A stretch of DNA of 64,000 bases, taken from positions 2,992-66,991 of the forward strand of contig CAKPKR010000003.1 in assembly GCA_934167465.1 (NCBI GenBank), given 5' to 3'. Under the pieces are notes generated by a model that was not told the DNA's origin, made no database searches, and was given only the letters and a program-made list of their open reading frames with translations. The position numbers were made by a program, and so were the translations under genes. Below, in pieces: positions 8,915 to 62,597 of this stretch. Within the stretch, counting starts at the first letter, position 1. Every line of letters starts with the position of its first letter. The stretch is from an uncultured Bacilli bacterium. Its GTDB lineage: Bacteria > Bacillota_I > Bacilli_A > RF39 > UBA660.

Positions 8915-9047
8915 GTAAGTAATTCCTTTTTTTGTATTGTTTTTTTTAATGTTTATAATAATAAAAAGATGTAAATAAAAAAATGATGTCTTGCAATATG
9001 TAATATATTTATTATATAATAAAATAGAAAGGTAGTAGTGAAGTAGT
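8915..9047 (+). promoter_or_regulatory. shared promoter and leader module, copy 1 (TTGCAA-18-TATAAT plus conserved 5' UTR ATAGAAAGGTAGTAGTGAAGTAGT-ATG)
   Basis: A module of about 130 bp recurs almost identically upstream of the genes at 9048, 10055 and 49682. The -35 is at 8991-8996 and the -10 at 9015-9020. Confidence 0.55.
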
Positions 9048-9917
9048 ATGAAAAAAATGTTAAGAAGCAGAATTTTTTTGGTAATAGTAACATTAATAAT
9101 AGGAATAAGTGGAACATTATATGCAGCAAACTCATATAACGCAAATGCTATTGTTTATAATTCAAGTGATGGAACAAGTAAAAATGTAAATGAAGCTTTG
9201 AATGATTTATATACAAAAAGTAAAAAAGAATATTATGTAAATGGATTAGTAGCATATTATAATCCTGTAACAGGATCAAAATGTAAAGTAAGCGAAGCAA
9301 CATCAAATACAAATAGCAAAGGAACATATACAGAGGTAAAAACAGGATGTATGAAATGGTATATTTTTAAAGAAGATTTTGATAATTATACAATGATATT
9401 AGATCACAATACTACTGCAAGAATAAAATGGAATGATAATAATGTAAATGTATCTTATGAAAATAGCAATATTAAAGCCGAAGTAGATAAGTTAGTAAGT
9501 GTCTCAAAATGGAAAAATACTCCTAGATTAATTACAGCAAATGAATTATCCAAAATAACAAATAATTCAACTTTTAATGATTCAGTTGAAAATAATTGGT
9601 ATTTTTTTGATAGTAATAGTCATAATCAAACTGCTACATCAAAGGGTGCAAGCACTTATTCTTGGCTATATGATTATACATCTTCTTGTTCAAGTTGGGG
9701 ATGTAATGTGGAAGATAATAATTATTATACTGGCGTTGGTACATCAGGAACTGGTTATTTTTATGGATATTGGACATCAACAACAAGGGGAACAGCTGGT
9801 GCTGGATATGCTGTTTGGGATGTTTTCCATCATGGTAATTTAGATGGTGGTGATGCTAATTATGATGCACGTGGTATTCGCCCAGTTATAACAATTTCAA
9901 AAACAATATTAAAATAA
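9048..9917 (+). CDS. variable secreted protein family member A0 (conserved N-terminal module plus DUF1566/Lcl-C-like C-terminus)
   Basis: The N-terminal 60 aa are shared with the genes at 32462, 33087, 33715, 41108, 42438, 52511 and 61881. The C-terminus, YWTSTT...AVWDVFHHGNL...ARGIRPV, fits the DUF1566 / FGE-fold ending. Confidence 0.6.
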   Translation: MKKMLRSRIFLVIVTLIIGISGTLYAANSYNANAIVYNSSDGTSKNVNEALNDLYTKSKKEYYVNGLVAYYNPVTGSKCKVSEATSNTNSKGTYTEVKTGCMKWYIFKEDFDNYTMILDHNTTARIKWNDNNVNVSYENSNIKAEVDKLVSVSKWKNTPRLITANELSKITNNSTFNDSVENNWYFFDSNSHNQTATSKGASTYSWLYDYTSSCSSWGCNVEDNNYYTGVGTSGTGYFYGYWTSTTRGTAGAGYAVWDVFHHGNLDGGDANYDARGIRPVITISKTILK

Positions 9918-10054
9918 GGAAGTAATTCCTTTTTTTGTATTCTTTTTCTAATAATAGTTATACTAATAAAAAAAGATGTAAATAAAAAAATATTGTCTTG
10001 CAAAAAGTAATACAATTAATGTATAATTGAATAGAAAGGTAGTAGTGAAGTAGT
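9918..10054 (+). promoter_or_regulatory. shared promoter and leader module, copy 2
   Basis: Same module. TTGCAA is at 9998-10003 and TATAAT at 10022-10027. A small AGGAA-gtaa-TTCCT-T7 terminator lies at its 5' end. Confidence 0.55.
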
Positions 10055-11698
10055 ATGAAAAAAGGATTTACATTAATAGAATTATTGGCAGTAATAGTGA
10101 TATTGGCAGTAATAGCATTAATCGCAACACCAATAATATTAAATGTAATAGAAGAATCAAAAAAGGGAGCCGCTGAACAATCAGTAATCGGATATGTAAA
10201 CGGAATAGAGAATAATGTTTTAGTATCAGAATTGGATAATAGTTCTATAGAAGATGGAAGTTACAATATAAATGAAATAGAAGTAGAAGTAAAAGGAAAT
10301 AAACCTGATAGTGGGAATATAACAATAGAAAAAGGAATAGTAGTAGATGCAGTAATGTGTATGAGTGGATATAAAGTAATATATTCAAATAGTAAAGCGG
10401 AAGTCCAAGGAAAATGTGAAGGAAATCTAGTATATAGTGAAGGTATTTTAAATGGAACAGATCCAGTATTAGGTGAAAATATGATACCAGTAACAATAGA
10501 AAAAGATGGAACAGTAAAATATGCAGATATAAATAAGAAATGGTATAGTTATGGAAATAAAGAATGGGCAAATGCAGTAATATTAAATACAAGTAATAGT
10601 TATAATGTAGGAGATATAATACCAGAAAGTGAAATAGAATCATATTTTGTGTGGATACCAAGATATAGATATAAATTATTTAATGTAGATAATACAAGTA
10701 AAGATTCAAAAACATATACAAATTATAAAGATATACCAAGTAAAGCAGAGGAAATAGAAATAGTATTTGAAAATAAAGAAACAAAAATAAGTAACGGAAA
10801 TAAAAATGGTGAATATTTAATGCATCCAGCTTTTACATCATTTGAAAGTAATGGAATGTGGGTAGGAAAATTTGAAACAGGATATAAAGGAGCAACAACT
10901 ACTTCAACAGCTCAAGTAAACTCAAATGATTCTACAAAAGTAATAGTTAAACCAAACGTTTATAGTTGGAGAAGTATAACAGTAGGAAATATCTTTTTAA
11001 CAAGTTATAATTATAAAAGAGATTTGGATTCACATATGATGAAGAATACCGAATGGGGAGCAGTAGCATATCTTTCACATTCAAAATATGGAATAAATAG
11101 TGAAGTAAGAATAAATAATAATAGTGCACATATAACAGGTTATGCAAAGACTGAACAACCAACTTGTGGTTGGACAAATAGTAATGAAGAATGTAATAAG
11201 TTTGAAAGTACGGCTTTAAATCAAGATGGAACATATACAAAAAGATATAATACCGAAATTGGATATTTAGCAAGTACAACAGGAAATATAACCGGAATCT
11301 ATGATATGAGTGGCGGATCTAATGAATATATGGCAGCCTATATGGCAGGACAACTAGGAAATAGTGGACTAATACCAACCGATTATGATTCAAAATATTT
11401 TAATGTATATAATTCATCAAGTACAGTAACAAGTTATCAATATCGCATCTTAGGAGATGCAACTGGAGAAATGGGACCATTTACAAATTTAAAATCAAGT
11501 GGAAGTGATGGAGACAAAACCTCATATGCATCAAGTTGGTATGCCGACCGTTCGAACTTTGTTGACTCTGGTAGCCCTTGGTTCAACCGAGGCGGCGATT
11601 ACGGCCATGGTGTAGTTGCAGGTCAGTTCAACTTCCTTAGGAGCCCGGGTGGTACTTACAGTTACGTTGGCTTCCGCCTAGTTTTAACACCTCAATAA
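10055..11698 (+). CDS. type IV prepilin-like N-terminus fused to an FGE-sulfatase/DUF1566-like domain protein (paralog B1)
   Basis: MKKGFTLIELLAVIVIL is a class III prepilin signal: G then F, with E at +5. The middle and C-terminal parts, TEWGAVAYL, GIYDMSGGSNEY, RGG...VGFRLV, resemble the FGE-sulfatase fold. Confidence 0.6.
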   Translation: MKKGFTLIELLAVIVILAVIALIATPIILNVIEESKKGAAEQSVIGYVNGIENNVLVSELDNSSIEDGSYNINEIEVEVKGNKPDSGNITIEKGIVVDAVMCMSGYKVIYSNSKAEVQGKCEGNLVYSEGILNGTDPVLGENMIPVTIEKDGTVKYADINKKWYSYGNKEWANAVILNTSNSYNVGDIIPESEIESYFVWIPRYRYKLFNVDNTSKDSKTYTNYKDIPSKAEEIEIVFENKETKISNGNKNGEYLMHPAFTSFESNGMWVGKFETGYKGATTTSTAQVNSNDSTKVIVKPNVYSWRSITVGNIFLTSYNYKRDLDSHMMKNTEWGAVAYLSHSKYGINSEVRINNNSAHITGYAKTEQPTCGWTNSNEECNKFESTALNQDGTYTKRYNTEIGYLASTTGNITGIYDMSGGSNEYMAAYMAGQLGNSGLIPTDYDSKYFNVYNSSSTVTSYQYRILGDATGEMGPFTNLKSSGSDGDKTSYASSWYADRSNFVDSGSPWFNRGGDYGHGVVAGQFNFLRSPGGTYSYVGFRLVLTPQ

Positions 11699-11730
11699 AA
11701 ATAATGTTTAAACATTGTTTTTTTCTATAA
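11699..11730 (+). terminator. rho-independent terminator
   Basis: AATGTTTAAACATT is followed by T7. Confidence 0.55.
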
Positions 11731-32407: not shown

Positions 32408-32438
32408 TTGACAAAAACGTCTGGGGGGGGGGTATGAT
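32408..32438 (+). promoter_or_regulatory. poly-G promoter of A1: TTGACA, spacer with G10 at 32423-32432, TATGAT
   Basis: The spacer is 19 nt. The homopolymer lies exactly between the -35 and the -10. Confidence 0.7.
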
Positions 32439-32461: not shown

Positions 32462-32917
32462 ATGAAAAAAGTAATAAAAAATAGAATGTTTTTGGTGATT
32501 ATAATAACTATCATAGTTACTAGTGTAAGTGTATATGCCGCAACCACATATAAAGCAACAGATGTAATATATAAAGCAAGTGATGGAACAAGTATGAATG
32601 TAAATGATGCTTTAAATGAATTATATAATAAAAGTAATAATACAGGATATCCTGATATTAAAATTTATTATGATTCAGGTTGGGGTGGTGGTACTTGTCA
32701 AGCATTTGCTAATTTTAATATACCTAAAGGGTATAATTATTTAGAAGTAATACCACCATATGTTAGTTCTGAACATAGTTCATCTATGGAAGGAAAAATA
32801 ATTTCTCTTAATCAAAAGATTAATGTTTCGGAAAAAGATAGTGTACGAGTAAATGTATATAATGAAGCTACTAGTGGAGCTTGTAGAGCAAATGGTACTA
32901 TTGTACTTAGTCATTAA
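32462..32917 (+). CDS. variable secreted protein family member A1
   Basis: The conserved N-terminus MKKVIKNRMFLVII...YAATTYKATDVIYKASDGTSMNVNDALNELYNK is followed by a variable C-terminus. Confidence 0.65.
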   Translation: MKKVIKNRMFLVIIITIIVTSVSVYAATTYKATDVIYKASDGTSMNVNDALNELYNKSNNTGYPDIKIYYDSGWGGGTCQAFANFNIPKGYNYLEVIPPYVSSEHSSSMEGKIISLNQKINVSEKDSVRVNVYNEATSGACRANGTIVLSH

Positions 32918-33032: not shown

Positions 33033-33063
33033 TTGACTTTTACGTCTGGGGGGGGGGTATGAT
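33033..33063 (+). promoter_or_regulatory. poly-G promoter of A2: TTGACT, spacer with G10 at 33048-33057, TATGAT
   Basis: The spacer is 19 nt. Confidence 0.7.
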
Positions 33064-33086: not shown

Positions 33087-33551
33087 ATGAAAAAAATAAT
33101 GAAAAGTAGAATATTTTTAGTAATTATAATAACTATCATAGTTGCTAGCGTAAGTGTATATGCCGCAACCACATATAAAGCAACAGATGTAATATATAAA
33201 GCAAGTGATGGAACAAGTATGAATGTAAATGATGCTTTAAATGAATTATATAATAAAAGTAATAATACAGGATATCCTGATATTACAATGTATCTTGATT
33301 CAGGTTATGTAGCAGCAGCTAATTGTGCAACCTCTGTTACTATTGATATACCTGATGGTTATAATTATTTAACTGTAACAACTACTGGTAATGTTTCACA
33401 AACTAAGATAGCAATGGATAGCACATATGTTACTTCTGGAGAGAAATATGATGTTTCAGAGAAAAATAGTATATTAATAAAAATTATACATTATAAAAAT
33501 TCTAGTGGTACGTATTCTAGAGCAATGGGAACTATTGTACTCAGTCATTAA
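33087..33551 (+). CDS. variable secreted protein family member A2
   Basis: A tandem paralog of A1 and A3. Confidence 0.65.
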   Translation: MKKIMKSRIFLVIIITIIVASVSVYAATTYKATDVIYKASDGTSMNVNDALNELYNKSNNTGYPDITMYLDSGYVAAANCATSVTIDIPDGYNYLTVTTTGNVSQTKIAMDSTYVTSGEKYDVSEKNSILIKIIHYKNSSGTYSRAMGTIVLSH

Positions 33552-33661: not shown

Positions 33662-33691
33662 TTGACTTTTACGTCTGGGGGGGGGTATGAT
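33662..33691 (+). promoter_or_regulatory. poly-G promoter of A3: TTGACT, spacer with G9 at 33677-33685, TATGAT
   Basis: The spacer is 18 nt. Confidence 0.7.
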
Positions 33692-33714: not shown

Positions 33715-34173
33715 ATGAAAAAAGTAATAAAAAATAGAATGTTTTTGGTGATTATAATAACTATCATAGTTACTAGTGTAAGTGTATATGCCGCAACCAC
33801 ATATAAAGCAACAGATGTAATATATAAAGCAAGTGATGGAACAAGTATGAATGTAAATGATGCTTTAAATGAATTATATAATAAAAGTAATAATACAGGA
33901 TATCCTAATATTACAATGTACCTTGATTCAGGTTATGTAGCAGCAGCTAATTGTTCTGATTCCATTACTATTGATATACCTGATGGGTATAATTATTTAA
34001 CTGTAACAATTAATTATCCATCTATTGATACAATAAAGATGGATGGAACAATTATTACTTCTGGAGAAAAATATAATGTTTCTGAAAAAGAAAAAGTATT
34101 AATAAGTGTATCACAAATAAATACGGGTGGAACTTATGTTAGAGCAAAAGGAACTATTGTTCTTACTCGTTAA
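33715..34173 (+). CDS. variable secreted protein family member A3
   Basis: A tandem paralog. Its C-terminus is GTIVLTR. Confidence 0.65.
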   Translation: MKKVIKNRMFLVIIITIIVTSVSVYAATTYKATDVIYKASDGTSMNVNDALNELYNKSNNTGYPNITMYLDSGYVAAANCSDSITIDIPDGYNYLTVTINYPSIDTIKMDGTIITSGEKYNVSEKEKVLISVSQINTGGTYVRAKGTIVLTR

Positions 34174-41053: not shown

Positions 41054-41083
41054 TTGACTTTTACGTCTGGGGGGGGGTATGAT
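41054..41083 (+). promoter_or_regulatory. poly-G promoter of A4: TTGACT, spacer with G9 at 41069-41077, TATGAT
   Basis: The spacer is 18 nt. The conserved upstream box is ACGCGAACAAAATTTCTGC. Confidence 0.7.
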
Positions 41084-41107: not shown

Positions 41108-41992
41108 ATGAAAAAAATAATGAAAAGCAGAATATTTTTAGTAATAATTACAATGATTATATGTATAAGTGGAACTTTATATGCAGCGGTCACATATAAA
41201 GCAACAGATGTAGTATATAATGCCAATGATGGAACAAGTAAAAATGTAAGTGAGGCTTTAAATGAATTGTATGAAAATTGTTCTATTACAAAAATATATC
41301 CAAAAGTAACAATAACTACAGAAGCAGATACTGTTATAGGCCAGACAGTAATTGCAACATTAATCAAAGATAAAGATGGAAATTCTCCTAAAGAAGAATA
41401 TGTAGTGAAGGGTACATTAACTAATAGTACAACTTTAGTGTTAAAAAAAATAGGAACTTATAAAATTACAGCAAGTTCTTCTGATGGATTAGAAAATTAT
41501 AGCGATGAAATAACTGTTCAATACGATAATGTATATAATATTAATTATACTGTAAAAAAATATCTTTTTAATAATAGTGATGTAACTGCAGTAACTGGAG
41601 GTTGGGGAGTGATGTGGGAGGCATCTGGTGGTACACCTGGAGCTTCAACGTCTGGTGGTACTGTTAATTCGACATTGTATTTAACTTCTGGATCATCGGG
41701 TAAAAAAGATATGTATGCGAAAAATTCAATTGATTTAACAGGATGGAAAAGAATTGTTATAGTATGTACATATTATAATAATTTAAATAATGGATGGGCA
41801 GGACTTCATTTATATCAACCTGGAGGTTATTGGAGTAAAGATGCTAAATTAGTTGTTGGAGATTTAGGAGCTTTTTCAGTTGGAACATTTACTTATGATA
41901 TTTCTAGTTCTAAATACCAAAAAGAAGTTAGATTTGCATTATTAGCGGCTAGAGTTGAATGGAAAATATCTAAAATATATTTAGAAAAATAA
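41108..41992 (+). CDS. variable secreted protein family member A4 (294 aa)
   Basis: The family N-terminus is followed by a long unique C-terminal region. Confidence 0.65.
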   Translation: MKKIMKSRIFLVIITMIICISGTLYAAVTYKATDVVYNANDGTSKNVSEALNELYENCSITKIYPKVTITTEADTVIGQTVIATLIKDKDGNSPKEEYVVKGTLTNSTTLVLKKIGTYKITASSSDGLENYSDEITVQYDNVYNINYTVKKYLFNNSDVTAVTGGWGVMWEASGGTPGASTSGGTVNSTLYLTSGSSGKKDMYAKNSIDLTGWKRIVIVCTYYNNLNNGWAGLHLYQPGGYWSKDAKLVVGDLGAFSVGTFTYDISSSKYQKEVRFALLAARVEWKISKIYLEK

Positions 41993-42384: not shown

Positions 42385-42414
42385 TTGATTTTTACGCCTG
42401 GGGGGGGGTATAAT
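42385..42414 (+). promoter_or_regulatory. poly-G promoter of A5: TTGATT, spacer with G9 at 42400-42408, TATAAT
   Basis: The spacer is 18 nt. It has the same upstream box as A4 and A7. Confidence 0.7.
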
Positions 42415-42437: not shown

Positions 42438-42926
42438 ATGAAAAAAATAATAAAAAGCAGAATATTTTTAGTAATAATTACAATGATTATATGTATAAGT
42501 GGAACATTATATGCCGCATCAACATACAAAGCAAGTGATGTAGTATATAACGCAAGTGATGGTACATCAACCAATGTTGAAAGTGCTTTAAATGATTTAT
42601 ATAATAAAACAAAAGAATATAGTAATAATTTTTTTCCATTTAATGTAAATTATGTATATAATAATTATATTGGTTCAACAAATAAAATAACATTTACTAC
42701 TACAATAGAAACAGGAAATATAGATATAACAAAATATAAAATAGTTGGTGGAACAACAAGAGTAGAACCATGGCTAAATACTCAAGGAAAATATATTGAT
42801 ACAACAAGTTCAATAATTAGTTGCAAAGAAGGTATTACGACTATAGAAATAACAGTAACAATTGATGCGGCATCTAGTCTAGCAGGACCCGTTAACTATA
42901 GCGGTGCAATATATAGAATTGAATAA
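42438..42926 (+). CDS. variable secreted protein family member A5 (162 aa)
   Basis: The family N-terminus is present. Confidence 0.65.
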   Translation: MKKIIKSRIFLVIITMIICISGTLYAASTYKASDVVYNASDGTSTNVESALNDLYNKTKEYSNNFFPFNVNYVYNNYIGSTNKITFTTTIETGNIDITKYKIVGGTTRVEPWLNTQGKYIDTTSSIISCKEGITTIEITVTIDAASSLAGPVNYSGAIYRIE

Positions 42927-49544: not shown

Positions 49545-49681
49545 TAGTTTTGACTACTTTTTTCTGTATTGTTTTTTTTATAATGTTTATAATAATAAAA
49601 AGATGTAAATAAGAAAATATTGTCTTGCAATACGTAATACGTTTATTATATAATAAGATAGAAAGGTAGTAGTGAAGTAGT
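49545..49681 (+). promoter_or_regulatory. shared promoter and leader module, copy 3
   Basis: A terminator, AGTAGT-tttg-ACTACT-T6, is followed by TTGCAA at 49625-49630, an 18-nt spacer, TATAAT at 49649-49654, and the 5' UTR identical to the copies at 9024 and 10031. Confidence 0.55.
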
Positions 49682-51328
49682 ATGAAAAAACAAGGATTTA
49701 CACTTATTGAGTTGTTAGCAGTTATCGTAATATTAGCTGTGATAGCTTTAATCGCAACACCAATAATCTTAAATGTAATTGAAGATTCAAAAAAGGGAGC
49801 AGCCGAACAATCAGTAATCGGATATATAAATGGAATAGAAAATAGTGTATTAGTATCAGAATTAGATAATAATTCATTAGATGATGGAAGTTATAATATA
49901 AATGAATTAAATGTCGAAGTAAAAGGAAATAAACCAAGTAGTGGTAATGTAACATTAGAAAATGGAATAGTAGTAGATGCTGTAATTTGTATGAATGGAT
50001 ATAGAATAAATTATGCAAATAGTAAAGCTGAAGTCCAAGGAAAATGTGATGAAGCATTAGTATATAGTGAAGGTATTTTAAATGGAACAGATCCCGTATT
50101 AGGTGACAATATGATACCAGTCACAATTGAAAAAGATGGAACAGTAAAGTATGCTGATATAAACAAAAAATGGTATAGTTATAGAAATAAAGAATGGGCA
50201 AATGCAGTAATATTAAATACAAGTAATACTTACAAAGTAGGAGATATAATACCAGAAAGTGAAATTGAATCATATTTTGTATGGATACCTAGATATAAAT
50301 ATAAATTATTTAATGTAGATAATACAAGTAAAGATTCAAAGACATATACAATATATACAGATGTACCAAGTAAAGCAGAGGAAATAGAAATAATATTTGA
50401 AAATAAAGAAACAAAAGAAAGTATAGGAACAAAGAATGGAGAATATTTAACCCACCCAGCCTTCACATCATTTGAAAGTAATGGAATGTGGGTAGGAAAG
50501 TTTGAAACAGGCTATAAAGGAGCAACTTCAACTACTTCAGCTCAAGTAAATAGTAATGATTTAAGTAAAGTAATAGTTAAACCTAATGTATATAGTTGGC
50601 GAAATATAACTATAAATAATATATTCTTAACAAGTTATAATTATAAAAGAAATTTAGATTCACATATGATGAAGAATACCGAATGGGGAGCAGTAGCATA
50701 CCTATCACATTCAAAATATGGAATTAATAATGATATAAGAATAAATAATAATAGTGCATATATAACAGGATATGCCAAGACAGAACAACCAACATGTGGA
50801 TATACAAATAGCAATGAAAATTGTAATAGATTTGAAAGTACATCATTAAATCAAGATGGGACATATACCAAGAGATATAATACGGAAATAGGCTATTTAG
50901 CTAGTACAACCGGAAATATTACGGGAATCTATGATATGAGTGGTGGGTCACATGAATATGTAGCAGCATATATGGCAGGAAACTTAGGAAGTAGTGGAAT
51001 AACACCAACCGATTATGATTCAAAATACTTTAATGTATATAATGCATCAAGTACACAAACAAGTTATCAATATCGAATTTTAGGAGATGCAACTGGCGAA
51101 ATGGGACCATTTACAAATTTAAAATCAACTGGGAGCAATGGTGTTAAGACAGCATATGTTTCAAGTTGGTACGCTTCCGACGCGAATTTCGTTGACTCTT
51201 CTTACCCTTGGTTCATTCGTGGCATCCATTTCATCGGTGGTGTACTTGCAGGTCAGTTCAACTTCGCTAGGAACACAGGAACTAATAATGGTTATATTGG
51301 TTTCCGTTTAGTTTTAACACCACAATAA
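49682..51328 (+). CDS. type IV prepilin-like N-terminus fused to an FGE-sulfatase/DUF1566-like domain protein (paralog B2)
   Basis: MKKQGFTLIELLAVIVIL is a prepilin signal. The protein is collinear with B1 throughout. The last 150 nt are GC-rich. Confidence 0.6.
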   Translation: MKKQGFTLIELLAVIVILAVIALIATPIILNVIEDSKKGAAEQSVIGYINGIENSVLVSELDNNSLDDGSYNINELNVEVKGNKPSSGNVTLENGIVVDAVICMNGYRINYANSKAEVQGKCDEALVYSEGILNGTDPVLGDNMIPVTIEKDGTVKYADINKKWYSYRNKEWANAVILNTSNTYKVGDIIPESEIESYFVWIPRYKYKLFNVDNTSKDSKTYTIYTDVPSKAEEIEIIFENKETKESIGTKNGEYLTHPAFTSFESNGMWVGKFETGYKGATSTTSAQVNSNDLSKVIVKPNVYSWRNITINNIFLTSYNYKRNLDSHMMKNTEWGAVAYLSHSKYGINNDIRINNNSAYITGYAKTEQPTCGYTNSNENCNRFESTSLNQDGTYTKRYNTEIGYLASTTGNITGIYDMSGGSHEYVAAYMAGNLGSSGITPTDYDSKYFNVYNASSTQTSYQYRILGDATGEMGPFTNLKSTGSNGVKTAYVSSWYASDANFVDSSYPWFIRGIHFIGGVLAGQFNFARNTGTNNGYIGFRLVLTPQ

Positions 51329-51508: not shown

Positions 51509-52381
51509 ATGCTTATGCAAATAGAAAAAAATACATTCTATACTTGTAAATATGATAGACCATTCAAAGAAATATTTTTAAATGAACAAAATAAACATTT
51601 ATTAAAAGGATTATTAGAAACAATACTAAAAACAGAAATTGATAAAATAGAACTAAAGCCAAGCGAATTAAATAGTAATAATATAAATATAAAAAGAAAA
51701 TATTTAGATGCATTAATATATGTAAAAGGTAAAAAAATAGGAATAGAAGTAAATTCAAATGCTGAAGAAAATTATTTAAGACCAAGAAATGCATCATTTA
51801 TATTTAATATATATTCATCACATACATTAGTAAGTGAAACATATGATGAAAAAACCGATATAATTCAAATTAATTTATCATATAACTTAAAAGATAAAAA
51901 GAATATAAGAATATATAAATTAAGAGATGAAGAAGGAAAAGAATATATTGAAAATTTATATATTTACGAAATAAATATGGATTACTATAGGAAACTATGG
52001 TACAATAAAAAAGAAGAAGTAAAAGAAGCAAAATATCTAGTAATGTTAGATTTAGAAGAAAAAGAATTAAAGGAATTTGCAAAAAACGATAGAGAGGTGA
52101 ATGAATATATGGAAAAATTGGAGAATTTAAATAGTAATCCAGAATTTTACCAATATATGACACACGAAGAAGATGAAAGAAAGATACACAACTCTATGAT
52201 GTATGAAGCAGAGCAAAAAGGTCTAGAAAAAGGTATAGAACAAGGTTTAGAACAAGGAATTGAAGAAGGAAAAAATGCCGAAAAAATAGCTACAGCGACA
52301 AACTTTAAAAATCTTGGCATAGATATTGAAACTATATCAAAAGCAACTGGTCTATCAAAAGAAGAAATAGAAAAATTATAA
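51509..52381 (+). CDS. Rpn/YhgA-family PD-(D/E)XK recombination-promoting nuclease (putative transposase)
   Basis: The N-terminus YDRPFKEIFLNEQNKH...DALIYVKGKKIGIEV is present. The characteristic C-terminal tail has KGLEKGIEQGLEQGIEEG repeats plus IATATNFKNLGIDIETISKATGLSKEEIEKL. Confidence 0.6.
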   Translation: MLMQIEKNTFYTCKYDRPFKEIFLNEQNKHLLKGLLETILKTEIDKIELKPSELNSNNINIKRKYLDALIYVKGKKIGIEVNSNAEENYLRPRNASFIFNIYSSHTLVSETYDEKTDIIQINLSYNLKDKKNIRIYKLRDEEGKEYIENLYIYEINMDYYRKLWYNKKEEVKEAKYLVMLDLEEKELKEFAKNDREVNEYMEKLENLNSNPEFYQYMTHEEDERKIHNSMMYEAEQKGLEKGIEQGLEQGIEEGKNAEKIATATNFKNLGIDIETISKATGLSKEEIEKL

Positions 52382-52455: not shown

Positions 52456-52487
52456 TTGACTTTTACGTCTGGGGGGGGGGGTATGAT
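52456..52487 (+). promoter_or_regulatory. poly-G promoter of A6: TTGACT, spacer with G11 at 52471-52481, TATGAT
   Basis: The spacer is 20 nt. This is the longest tract in the window. Confidence 0.7.
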
Positions 52488-52510: not shown

Positions 52511-53122
52511 ATGAAAAAAGTAATAAAAAGTAGAATATTTTTAGTAATAATTACGATGATTATATGTATAAGCGGAACATTATATGCAGCTAATACATAT
52601 AAAGCATCAGATGTAGTATATAATACCAGTGATGGAACAAGTAAAAATGTAAGTGAAGTCTTAAACGAGTTATATGATAAATCAAATAACAATTCTGATT
52701 TAGAATTAATATATGATGCAATGGTTTCTAAAGGAGTAACACCATCTAGTAAAAAGATAGATGATATTATAATGGCAATCAAAACAAAGATGGGAGTTTC
52801 AACTCATATAGCATCTGTTAGATTTGCAAATAGAGCCACTAATAGTTCTTCATATACAAGGGGTAGAATGTATTTATATGACTCTAGTGGGACAGTACTA
52901 TCATCTAGTTGGGCAGAAGGATCAGGAGAATCAACAATTTATGGTGAGGATGTTAGAGTCAGTTCTGGTACAATTTTATATGCTGGTTTTTCATCAGCAT
53001 CTGATAAAAATACAAGAGGAATATTGCAGCTTGTTGTTGATGGAAATGTGGTAACATCTGTATTTGTTGAAACAAGCAAAGGAACGTCAAATACTAATAA
53101 AATTACAGTTTTGGATTCTTAA
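52511..53122 (+). CDS. variable secreted protein family member A6 (203 aa)
   Basis: The family N-terminus is present. Confidence 0.65.
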   Translation: MKKVIKSRIFLVIITMIICISGTLYAANTYKASDVVYNTSDGTSKNVSEVLNELYDKSNNNSDLELIYDAMVSKGVTPSSKKIDDIIMAIKTKMGVSTHIASVRFANRATNSSSYTRGRMYLYDSSGTVLSSSWAEGSGESTIYGEDVRVSSGTILYAGFSSASDKNTRGILQLVVDGNVVTSVFVETSKGTSNTNKITVLDS

Positions 53123-61827: not shown

Positions 61828-61858
61828 TTGATTTTTACGCCTGGGGGGGGGGTATAAT
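61828..61858 (+). promoter_or_regulatory. poly-G promoter of A7: TTGATT, spacer with G10 at 61843-61852, TATAAT
   Basis: The spacer is 19 nt. It has the same upstream box, ACGCGAACAAAATTTCTGC. Confidence 0.7.
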
Positions 61859-61880: not shown

Positions 61881-62597
61881 ATGAAAAAAATAATAAAAAA
61901 TAAAATAATTTTAATAGTAATATTATGTATAATAAGTTGTGGTATAGGAGTATATGCTGCAACAACATATAAAGCAAGTGATATAGTATATAACGCAAGT
62001 GACGGAACAAGTATAAATGTAAATGATGCTTTAAATGATATTTATACAATCAAAACACAAGGTAATGCAACAGAAAATGATATTTTGAATGGAAAAACAG
62101 CTGTCGTAAAAGGAAAAATGATAACTGGTACATTTAAAAATAATTTTACCTTTGAAACAATAGAAAACCCGGTTGGTACATCTATTATGGATTATAATGA
62201 GAAAAGAAAAGATAAATATTTGACTTTTACACTAGGTGAAAGGTTAAGTTACAATGATACTAATTATTCTGATTATATGTGTTATATTTATCCTATAGAT
62301 TTAACTAATGTTTCAACACTCATCTTGTATCAATGGAATTATATATCGATGCATTTTACAGTAGCAATTTCATTATTTGATACTCCATTATATTCTAGGC
62401 AAGAAATAATAGATAATGCATTTGCAACGTGGACATATTCGACATCAGGTAGTAAAAAGGCATCTAATTACAATATTAAAGAAATTGATGTAAGAAATGT
62501 AACTGGTAAGAAGTATATCAATATTGCAGTTGTTAGTAAGAATAATTCTTCTGATGAATATTATATGCTTACTAAAAATATAATATCGTTTAATTAA
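61881..62597 (+). CDS. variable secreted protein family member A7 (238 aa)
   Basis: It is the most diverged family N-terminus: MKKIIKNKIILIVIL...YAATTYKASDIVYNASDGTSINVNDALNDIY. Confidence 0.6.
   Translation: MKKIIKNKIILIVILCIISCGIGVYAATTYKASDIVYNASDGTSINVNDALNDIYTIKTQGNATENDILNGKTAVVKGKMITGTFKNNFTFETIENPVGTSIMDYNEKRKDKYLTFTLGERLSYNDTNYSDYMCYIYPIDLTNVSTLILYQWNYISMHFTVAISLFDTPLYSRQEIIDNAFATWTYSTSGSKKASNYNIKEIDVRNVTGKKYINIAVVSKNNSSDEYYMLTKNIISFN

Follow-up and report, generated by a model that had tools for sequence, protein, structure and literature searches.

Few surface machines of bacteria are as widespread as type IV pili, and the origin of their binding specificity is an open theme. Diversity-generating retroelements (DGRs) are, to our knowledge, the only prokaryotic system of targeted protein hypermutation, and those that we know of have so far been tied to phage tail fibres, lipoproteins and the tips of Bacteroides type V pili. 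Two described kinds of protein come closest to the genes reported here. Modular type IV pilins are exemplified by PilB and PilC of Streptococcus sanguinis, which carry a vWA module and a lectin module, respectively (Raynaud et al. 2021, PMC8179133; PMC9934059). The other kind comprises the variable proteins that DGRs rewrite. We analysed a 64-kb stretch of contig CAKPKR010000003.1 from an uncultured, very AT-rich Bacilli bacterium of the gut (this whole stretch is called the window below) and found that two of its genes, B1 (10055-11698, + strand, 547 residues) and B2 (49682-51328, + strand, 548 residues), resemble both kinds at once. We consider it likely that B1 and B2 are modular type IV pilins with a DGR-type variable domain, the ends of which were written by mutagenic retrohoming. 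What is new here is the combination of two known kinds, modular pilins and DGR targets.

The two open reading frames (ORFs) were found at the coordinates and lengths given by a first-pass annotation of this DNA, and the spacing of about 39 kb claimed there was measured as 39.6 kb. The paralogy of B1 and B2 was also confirmed, at an identity of 84% (461 of 546 positions, full length and gap-free) and not the roughly 80% first estimated. The motifs KNTEWGAVAYL, GIYDMSGGSNEY and RGG...VGFRLVLTPQ were all present in the sequence as quoted. The window is ordinary chromosome with 25% GC and nearly all genes on one strand, and B1 and B2 are its only ORFs of at least 60 residues with a prepilin motif of the GFTLIE type.

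At their N-termini B1 reads MKKGFTLIELLAVIVILAVIALIATPIILNVIE and B2 MKKQGFTLIELLAVIVILAVIALIATPIILNVIE, with a shared start MKK(Q)GFTLIELLAVIVILAVIALIATPIILNVIE that places Gly at -1, Phe at +1 and Glu at +5. The features of a class III signal were found together: a short basic leader MKK(Q)G preceding FTLIELLAVIVILAVIALIATP at the predicted cleavage point, a hydrophobic residue at +1, Glu at +5 and a hydrophobic stretch of about 20 residues. Pfam N_methyl (PF07963) scored 28.0 bits in B1 and 30.6 bits in B2 (gathering cut-off 21.2), and TIGR02532 scored 32.5 and 31.9 (cut-off 16.3). The prepilin signal proposed in the first-pass annotation is thereby borne out, and it sits on a complete pilin module. 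The N-methyl motif was the only match of B1 and B2 in Pfam and NCBIfam, and phmmer and profile searches of PDB sequences with the two proteins matched pilins only. The leader of B1, MKKG (10055..10066, + strand), is predicted to be cleaved after Gly4, which would leave an N-methylated Phe5 at +1 and Glu9 at +5. The mature pilin module, Phe5-Cys121 (10067..10417, + strand), consists of an alpha-1 helix, a beta-sheet and a C-terminal pair Cys102...Cys121. The corresponding parts of B2, on the same strand, are the leader MKKQG, a pilin module running through Cys122 (49682-50047) and an effector module from about 50057.

We modelled B1 with AlphaFold2 on a 60-sequence alignment (mean predicted local distance difference test score 85.9, predicted template modelling score 0.83) and obtained a pilin module and a large second domain. 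The pilin module had the pilin fold, with a helix over residues 7-60 and a beta-sheet over residues 68-120. Furthermore, many stand-alone pilins of 120-180 residues were found to be 50-60% identical to the pilin module of B1 and B2. The size of the two proteins had been taken as an anomaly; large pilins are not anomalous, modular pilins being a described class (PMC8179133). B1 has the layout of that class, with a pilin module at residues 1-121 followed by a C-lectin module of 420 residues that also occurs on non-pilin carriers.

The effector module of B1 comprises residues ~125-547 (10427..11695, + strand), where the first reading had proposed a domain like FGE-sulfatase (formylglycine-generating enzyme, FGE) or DUF1566. 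Pfam FGE-sulfatase (PF03781) and DUF1566 (PF07603) gave no match in B1 or B2 at E ≤ 1, and homologues matched FGE-sulfatase only below threshold (14.7-16.9 bits against a cut-off of 23.3, E 0.005-0.025). The predicted structure and a fold search revealed that the C-terminal ~420 residues adopt the FGE subtype of the C-lectin fold; neither a sequence match nor a close structural match to DUF1566 or the C-terminal domain of Lcl was found. The fold part of the proposal therefore stands, and the matches to the two Pfam families do not. The best fold match of the B1 model was TaqVP, the DGR variable protein of a Thermus aquaticus prophage (5vf4_A; score 18.1, 239 aligned residues, 21% identity), which its authors assign to the FGE subtype of the C-lectin fold (PMC6328139), so the initial guess about the fold was right. 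It was followed by PvdO (5hha_B, 11.2), the Treponema denticola DGR variable protein TvpA (2y3c_A, 11.0), CarF (5aoh_B, 10.5), PorK (9mzu_A, 10.2), pFGE (1y4j_B, 10.1), the Bordetella phage DGR variable protein Mtd (1yu0_A, 9.9) and EgtB (4x8b_A, 9.3). In the model, the nearest fold relatives of the B1 effector domain thus appear to be DGR variable proteins and not enzymes. That the domain belongs in the family of these proteins, and that both genes end in a variable-region-like segment, had been missed in the first reading. Surface ligand binding would be the best functional reading, in keeping with the lectin or adhesin idea put forward at first.

The variable-region-like segment of B1 covers Tyr496-Thr545 (11540..11689, + strand), with the variable codons at about residues 498-538; that of B2 lies at 51170..51319 (+ strand) and is more AT-drifted. 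As in DGR targets, the variable residues fall in the C-terminal segment of a C-lectin fold. Nucleotide divergence between B1 and B2 was about 11% over most of the gene and rose to about 29% in gene nucleotides 1441-1620, and the last 27 nucleotides were conserved again. In base composition the segments stood out from everything around them: the best 150-nucleotide windows had a GC content of 52.7% in B1 and 46.7% in B2 compared to 25.3% for the window, and were the richest such stretches in the 64 kb. GC at third codon positions (GC3) was 0.47 (B1) and 0.38 (B2) in the last 55 codons and 0.11-0.13 in the gene bodies, and the fraction of A in the last 165 nucleotides was 0.19 (B1) and 0.23 (B2) compared to about 0.45 in the gene bodies. 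At the 3' end, the element GGCTTCCGCCT that is conserved in B1 reads GGTTTCCGTTT in B2; this change and the drift of third positions to A/T suggest that B2 is the older or more decayed copy.

The kind of change also differed between the two parts of the genes. We found 20 nonsynonymous and 8 synonymous codon differences between B1 and B2 in the 45 variable-region codons, compared to 64 and 92 in the 495 codons of the gene body (variable region against body, Fisher p = 0.0027). The differences concentrated at the first and second positions of NNC and NNT codons, a pattern that would be expected from template AAC and AAT codons copied with adenine-specific errors. When B1 was compared with the nearest known template repeat, that of a homologous locus (L008) encoding a 755-residue prepilin with an extra Ig-like domain beside the template repeat and a reverse transcriptase remnant, mismatches occurred at 16 of the 40 A sites and 11 of the 110 non-A sites (p = 7e-5). 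The corresponding counts for B2 were 15 of 40 and 21 of 110 (p = 0.02). From this footprint we conclude that mutagenic retrohoming probably shaped the 3' ends of B1 and B2.

The homologue family is large, and some of its members stand beside their retroelements. Of the 8,000 candidates scored in a word-index search, 7,994 were relatives; 2,104 clusters passed E ≤ 1e-30 when representatives at 50% identity were searched with a profile, and at least 587 family copies were counted across species-representative genomes. Nearly all records were metagenome-assembled genomes (MAGs) of uncultured Bacilli, Tenericutes, Erysipelotrichaceae or Firmicutes, with three under other names. Several MAGs held many copies, among them CATNCE01 (at least 12 loci) and CAKPSO01 (at least nine). 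Several loci contain, 200-350 nucleotides downstream of the gene, a second, partial version of its final ~140 nucleotides. In four cognate pairs the mismatches fell exclusively at template adenines: 21 at A and 0 of 92 at non-A sites in L011, 12 and 0 of 108 in L022, 16 and 0 of 105 in L024, and 6 and 0 of 92 in L035. Two further pairs showed 15 mismatches at A with two (L012) or one (L051) at non-A sites. The L011 target is a 551-residue homologue of the prepilin type, 51% identical to B1 over residues 1-547, and the repeat is followed downstream by a MutS-domain-I protein (MutS_I, PF01624, E 4.8e-8), a bAvd protein (PF22296, E 6.4e-24) and a 350-residue reverse transcriptase with a YMDD motif (RVT_1, E 2.1e-16). 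This trio of Msl (MutS-like), Avd and reverse transcriptase, a cassette type known from Bacteroides, was also present in L012, L022, L024, L051, L062 and L064. A reverse transcriptase with Avd stood beside homologues at seven of the 76 genome-scan loci, and again at template-repeat loci of a metagenome scan. One gene (L006) had eight A mismatches and 2 of 102 non-A mismatches to the L035 template repeat, which lies on another contig of the same MAG; judging by this pattern, L006 is a remote target of that repeat. In the MAG CAKOPW01, five tandem family copies with a period of ~1.4 kb were observed on a single contig (L036 1336-7268), none of them cognate to the template repeat of the MAG.

Several results weigh against the reading of B1 and B2 as pilins with ends written by retrohoming. 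No third copy of the repeat was found in the window (blastn with word size 7 returned B1 and B2 only), and tblastn with the proteins of relatives found no reverse transcriptase, Avd or Msl there. Sibling assemblies showed no DGR within ~10 kb upstream of the window start or ~10 kb downstream of the gene at 61881-62597. The upstream flank held housekeeping genes and further paralogues of the secreted proteins with a 27-residue motif described below, the downstream flank held parC, a sigma factor gene, hisS and aspS, and pilus genes were likewise not found in either. A scan of JGI metagenomes with the pattern CCTTGGTTCAACCGAGGCGGCAATTAC gave no match, and one with GGTCAGTTCAACTTCAATAGGAAC gave ten template-repeat loci, which without exception belonged to the L012 type and, at 19-23 non-A mismatches, were not cognate to B1. 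The pattern scan of viral contigs gave no match, and the family was not found in IMG/VR. The exact B1 protein was present on 11 contigs, and its nearest variant, P0001, had an identical variable region, so there is no sign of B1 being rewritten now. Most paralogues in the DGR-bearing MAGs showed 25-45% non-A mismatches and are therefore not current targets. The adenine bias itself is indirect, and weak for B2, and 11 (B1) and 21 (B2) non-A mismatches to the nearest known template repeat remain. On the pilus side, a prepilin peptidase and a platform protein are known from related contigs only, without an assembly ATPase, and we infer the cleavage, filament incorporation, tip location and ligand of the two proteins.

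In a sister clade with 82-84% identity to B1, variable regions were decoupled from gene bodies. P0006 and P0287 were identical at 489 of 494 body positions (99.0%) and at 27 of 42 variable-region positions (64.3%). P0002 and P0279 showed the reverse, with 91.7% identity in the body and 41 of 42 identical positions in the variable region. Because neither a template repeat nor a reverse transcriptase lies in the window and the variable region of B1 is fixed, we regard B1 and B2 as either remote, rarely rewritten targets of a DGR elsewhere in the genome or frozen former targets. A large DGR survey states that remote targets are not detectable (PMC8144416). With the retroelement missing, the headline claim for the window is limited to this extent.

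Under the reading of B1 and B2 as DGR-diversified pilins, a prepilin peptidase would cut off the class III leader (MKK or MKKQ, then Gly) and methylate Phe+1, and the pilin module of 117 residues would enter a type IV filament through its hydrophobic alpha-1 helix. Since the cargo is bulky, B1 and B2 would probably sit at the filament tip. According to structure prediction and fold search, the cargo has the C-lectin scaffold of the DGR variable proteins TaqVP, TvpA and Mtd, and the last ~45 residues would form its ligand-binding surface, by analogy with solved variable proteins. Binding sites written by mutagenic retrohoming would then give two pilins with the same body and different specificities.

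A different account holds that B1 and B2 are membrane-anchored surface proteins, and that the prepilin-like N-terminus is no more than a signal anchor, cleavable or uncleaved, one of several interchangeable modules that export or anchor the same binding domain. It draws on the modularity of the family. The B1-type C-lectin domain was found behind at least three N-termini, namely the prepilin, MKK..IGFAAVST.., and MKK..SGTLYAA with TYKASDVVY..NV..ALNELY, so that at least two carriers are not pilins; the last module is also present on eight further small proteins in the window. B1 and B2 each have their own promoter cassette, and no pilus machinery was found nearby in the window. In agreement with the first-pass annotation, no gene like pilB, pilC, pilD or comG was detected in the 64 kb when the ORFs of at least 110 residues were read, the Walker A box of GspE and the GGGDxKL box of A24 were sought in a motif scan, and tblastn was performed with T2SSE and A24 consensus fragments, a negative that rests on reading and motif searches, with Pfam run on some window ORFs only.

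We found this account unlikely, as the N-terminus is an entire pilin fold and goes beyond a mere hydrophobic segment. In related contigs of 22% GC (L102 and L103), a 163-residue pilin that is 54% identical to B1 residues 2-121 and keeps both cysteines lies directly downstream of a 255-residue prepilin peptidase (A24_N_bact E 2e-33, Peptidase_A24 E 2e-16) and a T2SSF platform protein (E 8e-53), PilD-like and PilC-like genes, respectively; no T2SSE ATPase was found within 10 kb of that pilin. L6, L7, A8 and P22, together with positions 6-21, were near-invariant in 90 family members of the prepilin type, which had been picked by the pattern GFTL-x-E, so that the pattern positions are not independent evidence. 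Finally, orphan pilin genes scattered amid housekeeping genes are common in this lineage, and the lack of machinery near B1 and B2 is therefore normal.

Two small-pilin loci had no machinery alongside, and the T2SSE and A24 motif and tblastn search of 1.4 Mb of fetched loci returned just one Tad-like cluster and false positives from ABC transporters. The cluster (L053 14115-20538) lies downstream of a family member and contains a 248-residue ORF with a sortase-like LITC motif, a 998-residue protein, a 280-residue ORF that is CpaB-like by eye and a T2SSE-type ATPase fragment (tblastn E 9e-11). We take it to be a Tad-like pilus locus and not the system for GFTLIE prepilins. The contig L098, from the same sample as an exact-B1 contig, held a giant N_methyl protein, a small pilin, comEA and comEC. 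In L098 and L099 (4808-9463), N_methyl proteins of 1,032 and 1,551 residues with many Ig/fn3-like repeats were observed beside the small pilin, and the genes comEA and comEC follow ~9 kb further downstream; between these two assemblies of the same locus the giant protein varied in length.

Next in order is a static pilus-tip lectin or adhesin, the view of the first-pass annotation: a modular pilin with an FGE/DUF1566-like lectin domain, in which diversifying selection on ordinary point mutations, and no retroelement, produced the C-terminal differences. The window without a template repeat or reverse transcriptase and the invariance of the B1 variable region across assemblies fit it well, and so does the fact that comparable modular pilins have already been catalogued. 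Here we take IPR012902 to be the pilin N-methylation motif, IPR005532 to be FGE-sulfatase and IPR011460 to be Lcl/DUF1566. A survey lists the architecture IPR012902-IPR005532 for eight proteins, as well as IPR012902-IPR011460 (PMC8179133). However, local point mutation is hard to credit for an island of 47-53% GC with a GC3 of 0.38-0.47 inside genes with a body GC3 of 0.11-0.13, because the island sits in a 25% GC genome. Homologues, the prepilin form among them, are genuine DGR targets whose mismatches fall at adenines only, B1 departs from a heterologous template repeat preferentially at the adenines of that repeat, and near-identical bodies bear very different variable regions. Collectively, these points make a purely static lectin improbable. 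That B1 and B2 are surface-displayed enzymes, their FGE-like domain being active as a formylglycine-generating or sulfoxide-synthase-type oxidase, is barely credible, since Pfam FGE-sulfatase gives no match, the TaqVP paper deems FGE activity unlikely for such proteins (PMC6328139), and residues 495-547, where the RGG...GFRLV motifs had been likened to the FGE active-site region, contain no cysteine in either protein as judged by sequence, without a residue-level FGE alignment.

The two genes lie in different surroundings with the same upstream sequence. B1 is flanked by spoIIGA-sigE on one side and mutS on the other, and is preceded by the gene of a 289-residue secreted protein (9048..9917, + strand) with a signal peptide, a conserved motif of ~27 residues and a DUF6273/DUF1566-like C-lectin domain. 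B2 follows tgt and two small membrane-protein ORFs. Near-identical cassettes of ~110 nucleotides, with TTGCAA-18-TATAAT and the same ribosome-binding stretch, were found upstream of the 289-residue neighbour (8928-9047), B1 (9935-10054) and B2 (49562-49681). The promoter-like TTGCAA-18 nt-TATAAT itself lies at 9998..10027 for B1 and, in identical form, at 49625..49654 for B2, both on the + strand. The common cassette suggests common regulation, and that it was copied along with the genes. Three nucleotides past the B1 stop codon, an AT-rich palindrome around ATGTTTAAACAT forms a hairpin followed by a T run (11701..11724, + strand), which is probably a terminator; a consensus terminator scan, which needs at least three G-C pairs, does not call it. 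The 3' end of B2 is adjoined by a gene for a PD-(D/E)XK nuclease-family transposase (51509-52381; PF12784, E 1.7e-10). In three other assemblies the same gene follows a B2-like pilin, P0004 (on a 21.9-kb contig), and each of the three contigs ends within that gene, which we regard as a probable multicopy element. Downstream of P0004 no template repeat was detected.

The C-terminal domain of the 289-residue neighbour is fused elsewhere to a prepilin, in forms of 340-390 residues (for example L090 18803-19825 and L004 11840-12949, the latter locus having two pilin gene types adjacent). The intergenic slot between sigE and mutS holds differing modular surface genes across sibling strains; in one of them it holds a single 340-residue prepilin with a neighbour-type domain (40% identity). 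In P0100 a DUF6273-like domain lies between the pilin and C-lectin modules in one chain. The neighbour was considered as a further DGR target: GC is moderately high at its 3' end (0.43), but no template-repeat-like copy was found in any locus. At L101 8001-9010 a 103-residue N_methyl ORF is directly followed by a 211-residue ORF homologous to the DUF6273-like domain, possibly a modular pilin gene that was split or frameshifted; the tgt gene of that contig is 81% identical at the nucleotide level to tgt of the window.

The neighbour is one of eight window genes that encode a signal peptide and the ~27-residue motif (9048-9917, 32462-32917, 33087-33551, 33715-34173, 41108-41992, 42438-42926, 52511-53122 and 61881-62597). 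The motif, TYKASDVVYNASDGTS.NV..ALNELY, is followed by unrelated C-terminal domains. The stand-alone pilin that L102 and L103 encode beside the prepilin peptidase ends in it as well (...SNVSFTPSDSSWNVNTVEEALNYLYEN), and the motif may serve these proteins as a common tag for docking or assembly. A promoter-like cassette composed of TTGAC/TT, nine nucleotides, a poly-G tract (G9-G11) and TATGAT/TATAAT was found at each of seven paralogous genes for small secreted proteins. The tracts at 32423-32432, 33048-33057, 33677-33685, 41069-41077, 42400-42408, 52471-52481 and 61843-61852 precede the gene starts at 32462, 33087, 33715, 41108, 42438, 52511 and 61881, respectively, and are the only runs of at least eight G in the 64 kb (19 overlapping matches compared to 0.12 expected). 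Their length differed at orthologous loci of other assemblies (G8 against G10, G9 against G10), which looks like slipped-strand phase variation of promoter spacing.

Set against the described systems, B1 and B2 share with the known modular pilins a small pilin module with a class III signal, a short linker and a bulky module that is probably displayed at the tip, as well as a monoderm host. They differ in that the module is a TaqVP-like DGR variable domain not recognised by Pfam, occurs also on non-pilin carriers and has a putatively hypervariable C-terminus, and in that the genes are orphans with their own promoters outside any pil locus. TaqVP (5VF4) and TvpA (2Y3C) are single-domain proteins and Mtd (1YU0) stands at the tip of a phage tail fibre, whereas the domain of B1 and B2 is carried on a type IV pilin; moreover, neither a template repeat nor a reverse transcriptase accompanies it in the window. 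The C-terminal domain of the Legionella collagen-like protein Lcl (DUF1566, 8Q4E) is another member of this broad C-type-lectin-like superfold. In Bacteroides, DGRs have been reported to diversify the tip adhesins of type V pili, and the likeness extends to a gut bacterium, a pilus subunit whose DGR-diversified residues sit in a C-lectin head at the C-terminus, and the Msl and Avd accessory genes. The two kinds of pili are unrelated, type V depending on lipoprotein export and strand exchange and type IV on the class III signal and packing of the alpha-1 helix, and the phylum is Bacteroidota in one case and low-GC Bacilli in the other. No paper linking DGRs to type IV pilins or prepilins was found in the searchable literature; one survey names a 'GspG-type pilin' among the rare domains that hold a variable region (PMC11661182).

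The findings bear on how such targets can be recognised and on how these bacteria may build their surface. When the retroelement lies off-contig, its targets can be flagged simply by a 3' island that is rich in GC and poor in A within an AT-rich genome, and remote or orphan DGR targets may be numerous. A broader possibility, which we hold to be doubtful, is that low-GC gut Bacilli run a combinatorial, partly retroelement-driven system of surface recognition, in which B1 and B2 would be live remote targets serving as programmable pilus tips. In such a system the carriers (the type IV pilin, the signal peptide with the 27-residue motif and a third signal type) may be interchangeable, and TaqVP-like and DUF6273-like C-lectin modules may be interchangeable as effectors across them. 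One Msl-Avd-reverse transcriptase cassette per genome may rewrite the tips of dispersed paralogues in trans, pilus-tip subunits included, and the 27-residue motif may act as a docking tag through which non-pilin cargo is added to the same filament. If true, this would give type IV pili an antibody-like, programmable tip. In summary, a large family of abundant uncultured Bacilli from the human and animal gut appears to bear a DGR-type variable domain on type IV pilins. The evolution of adhesins by DGRs would then reach beyond type V pili to another, unrelated pilus system, and into monoderm bacteria.

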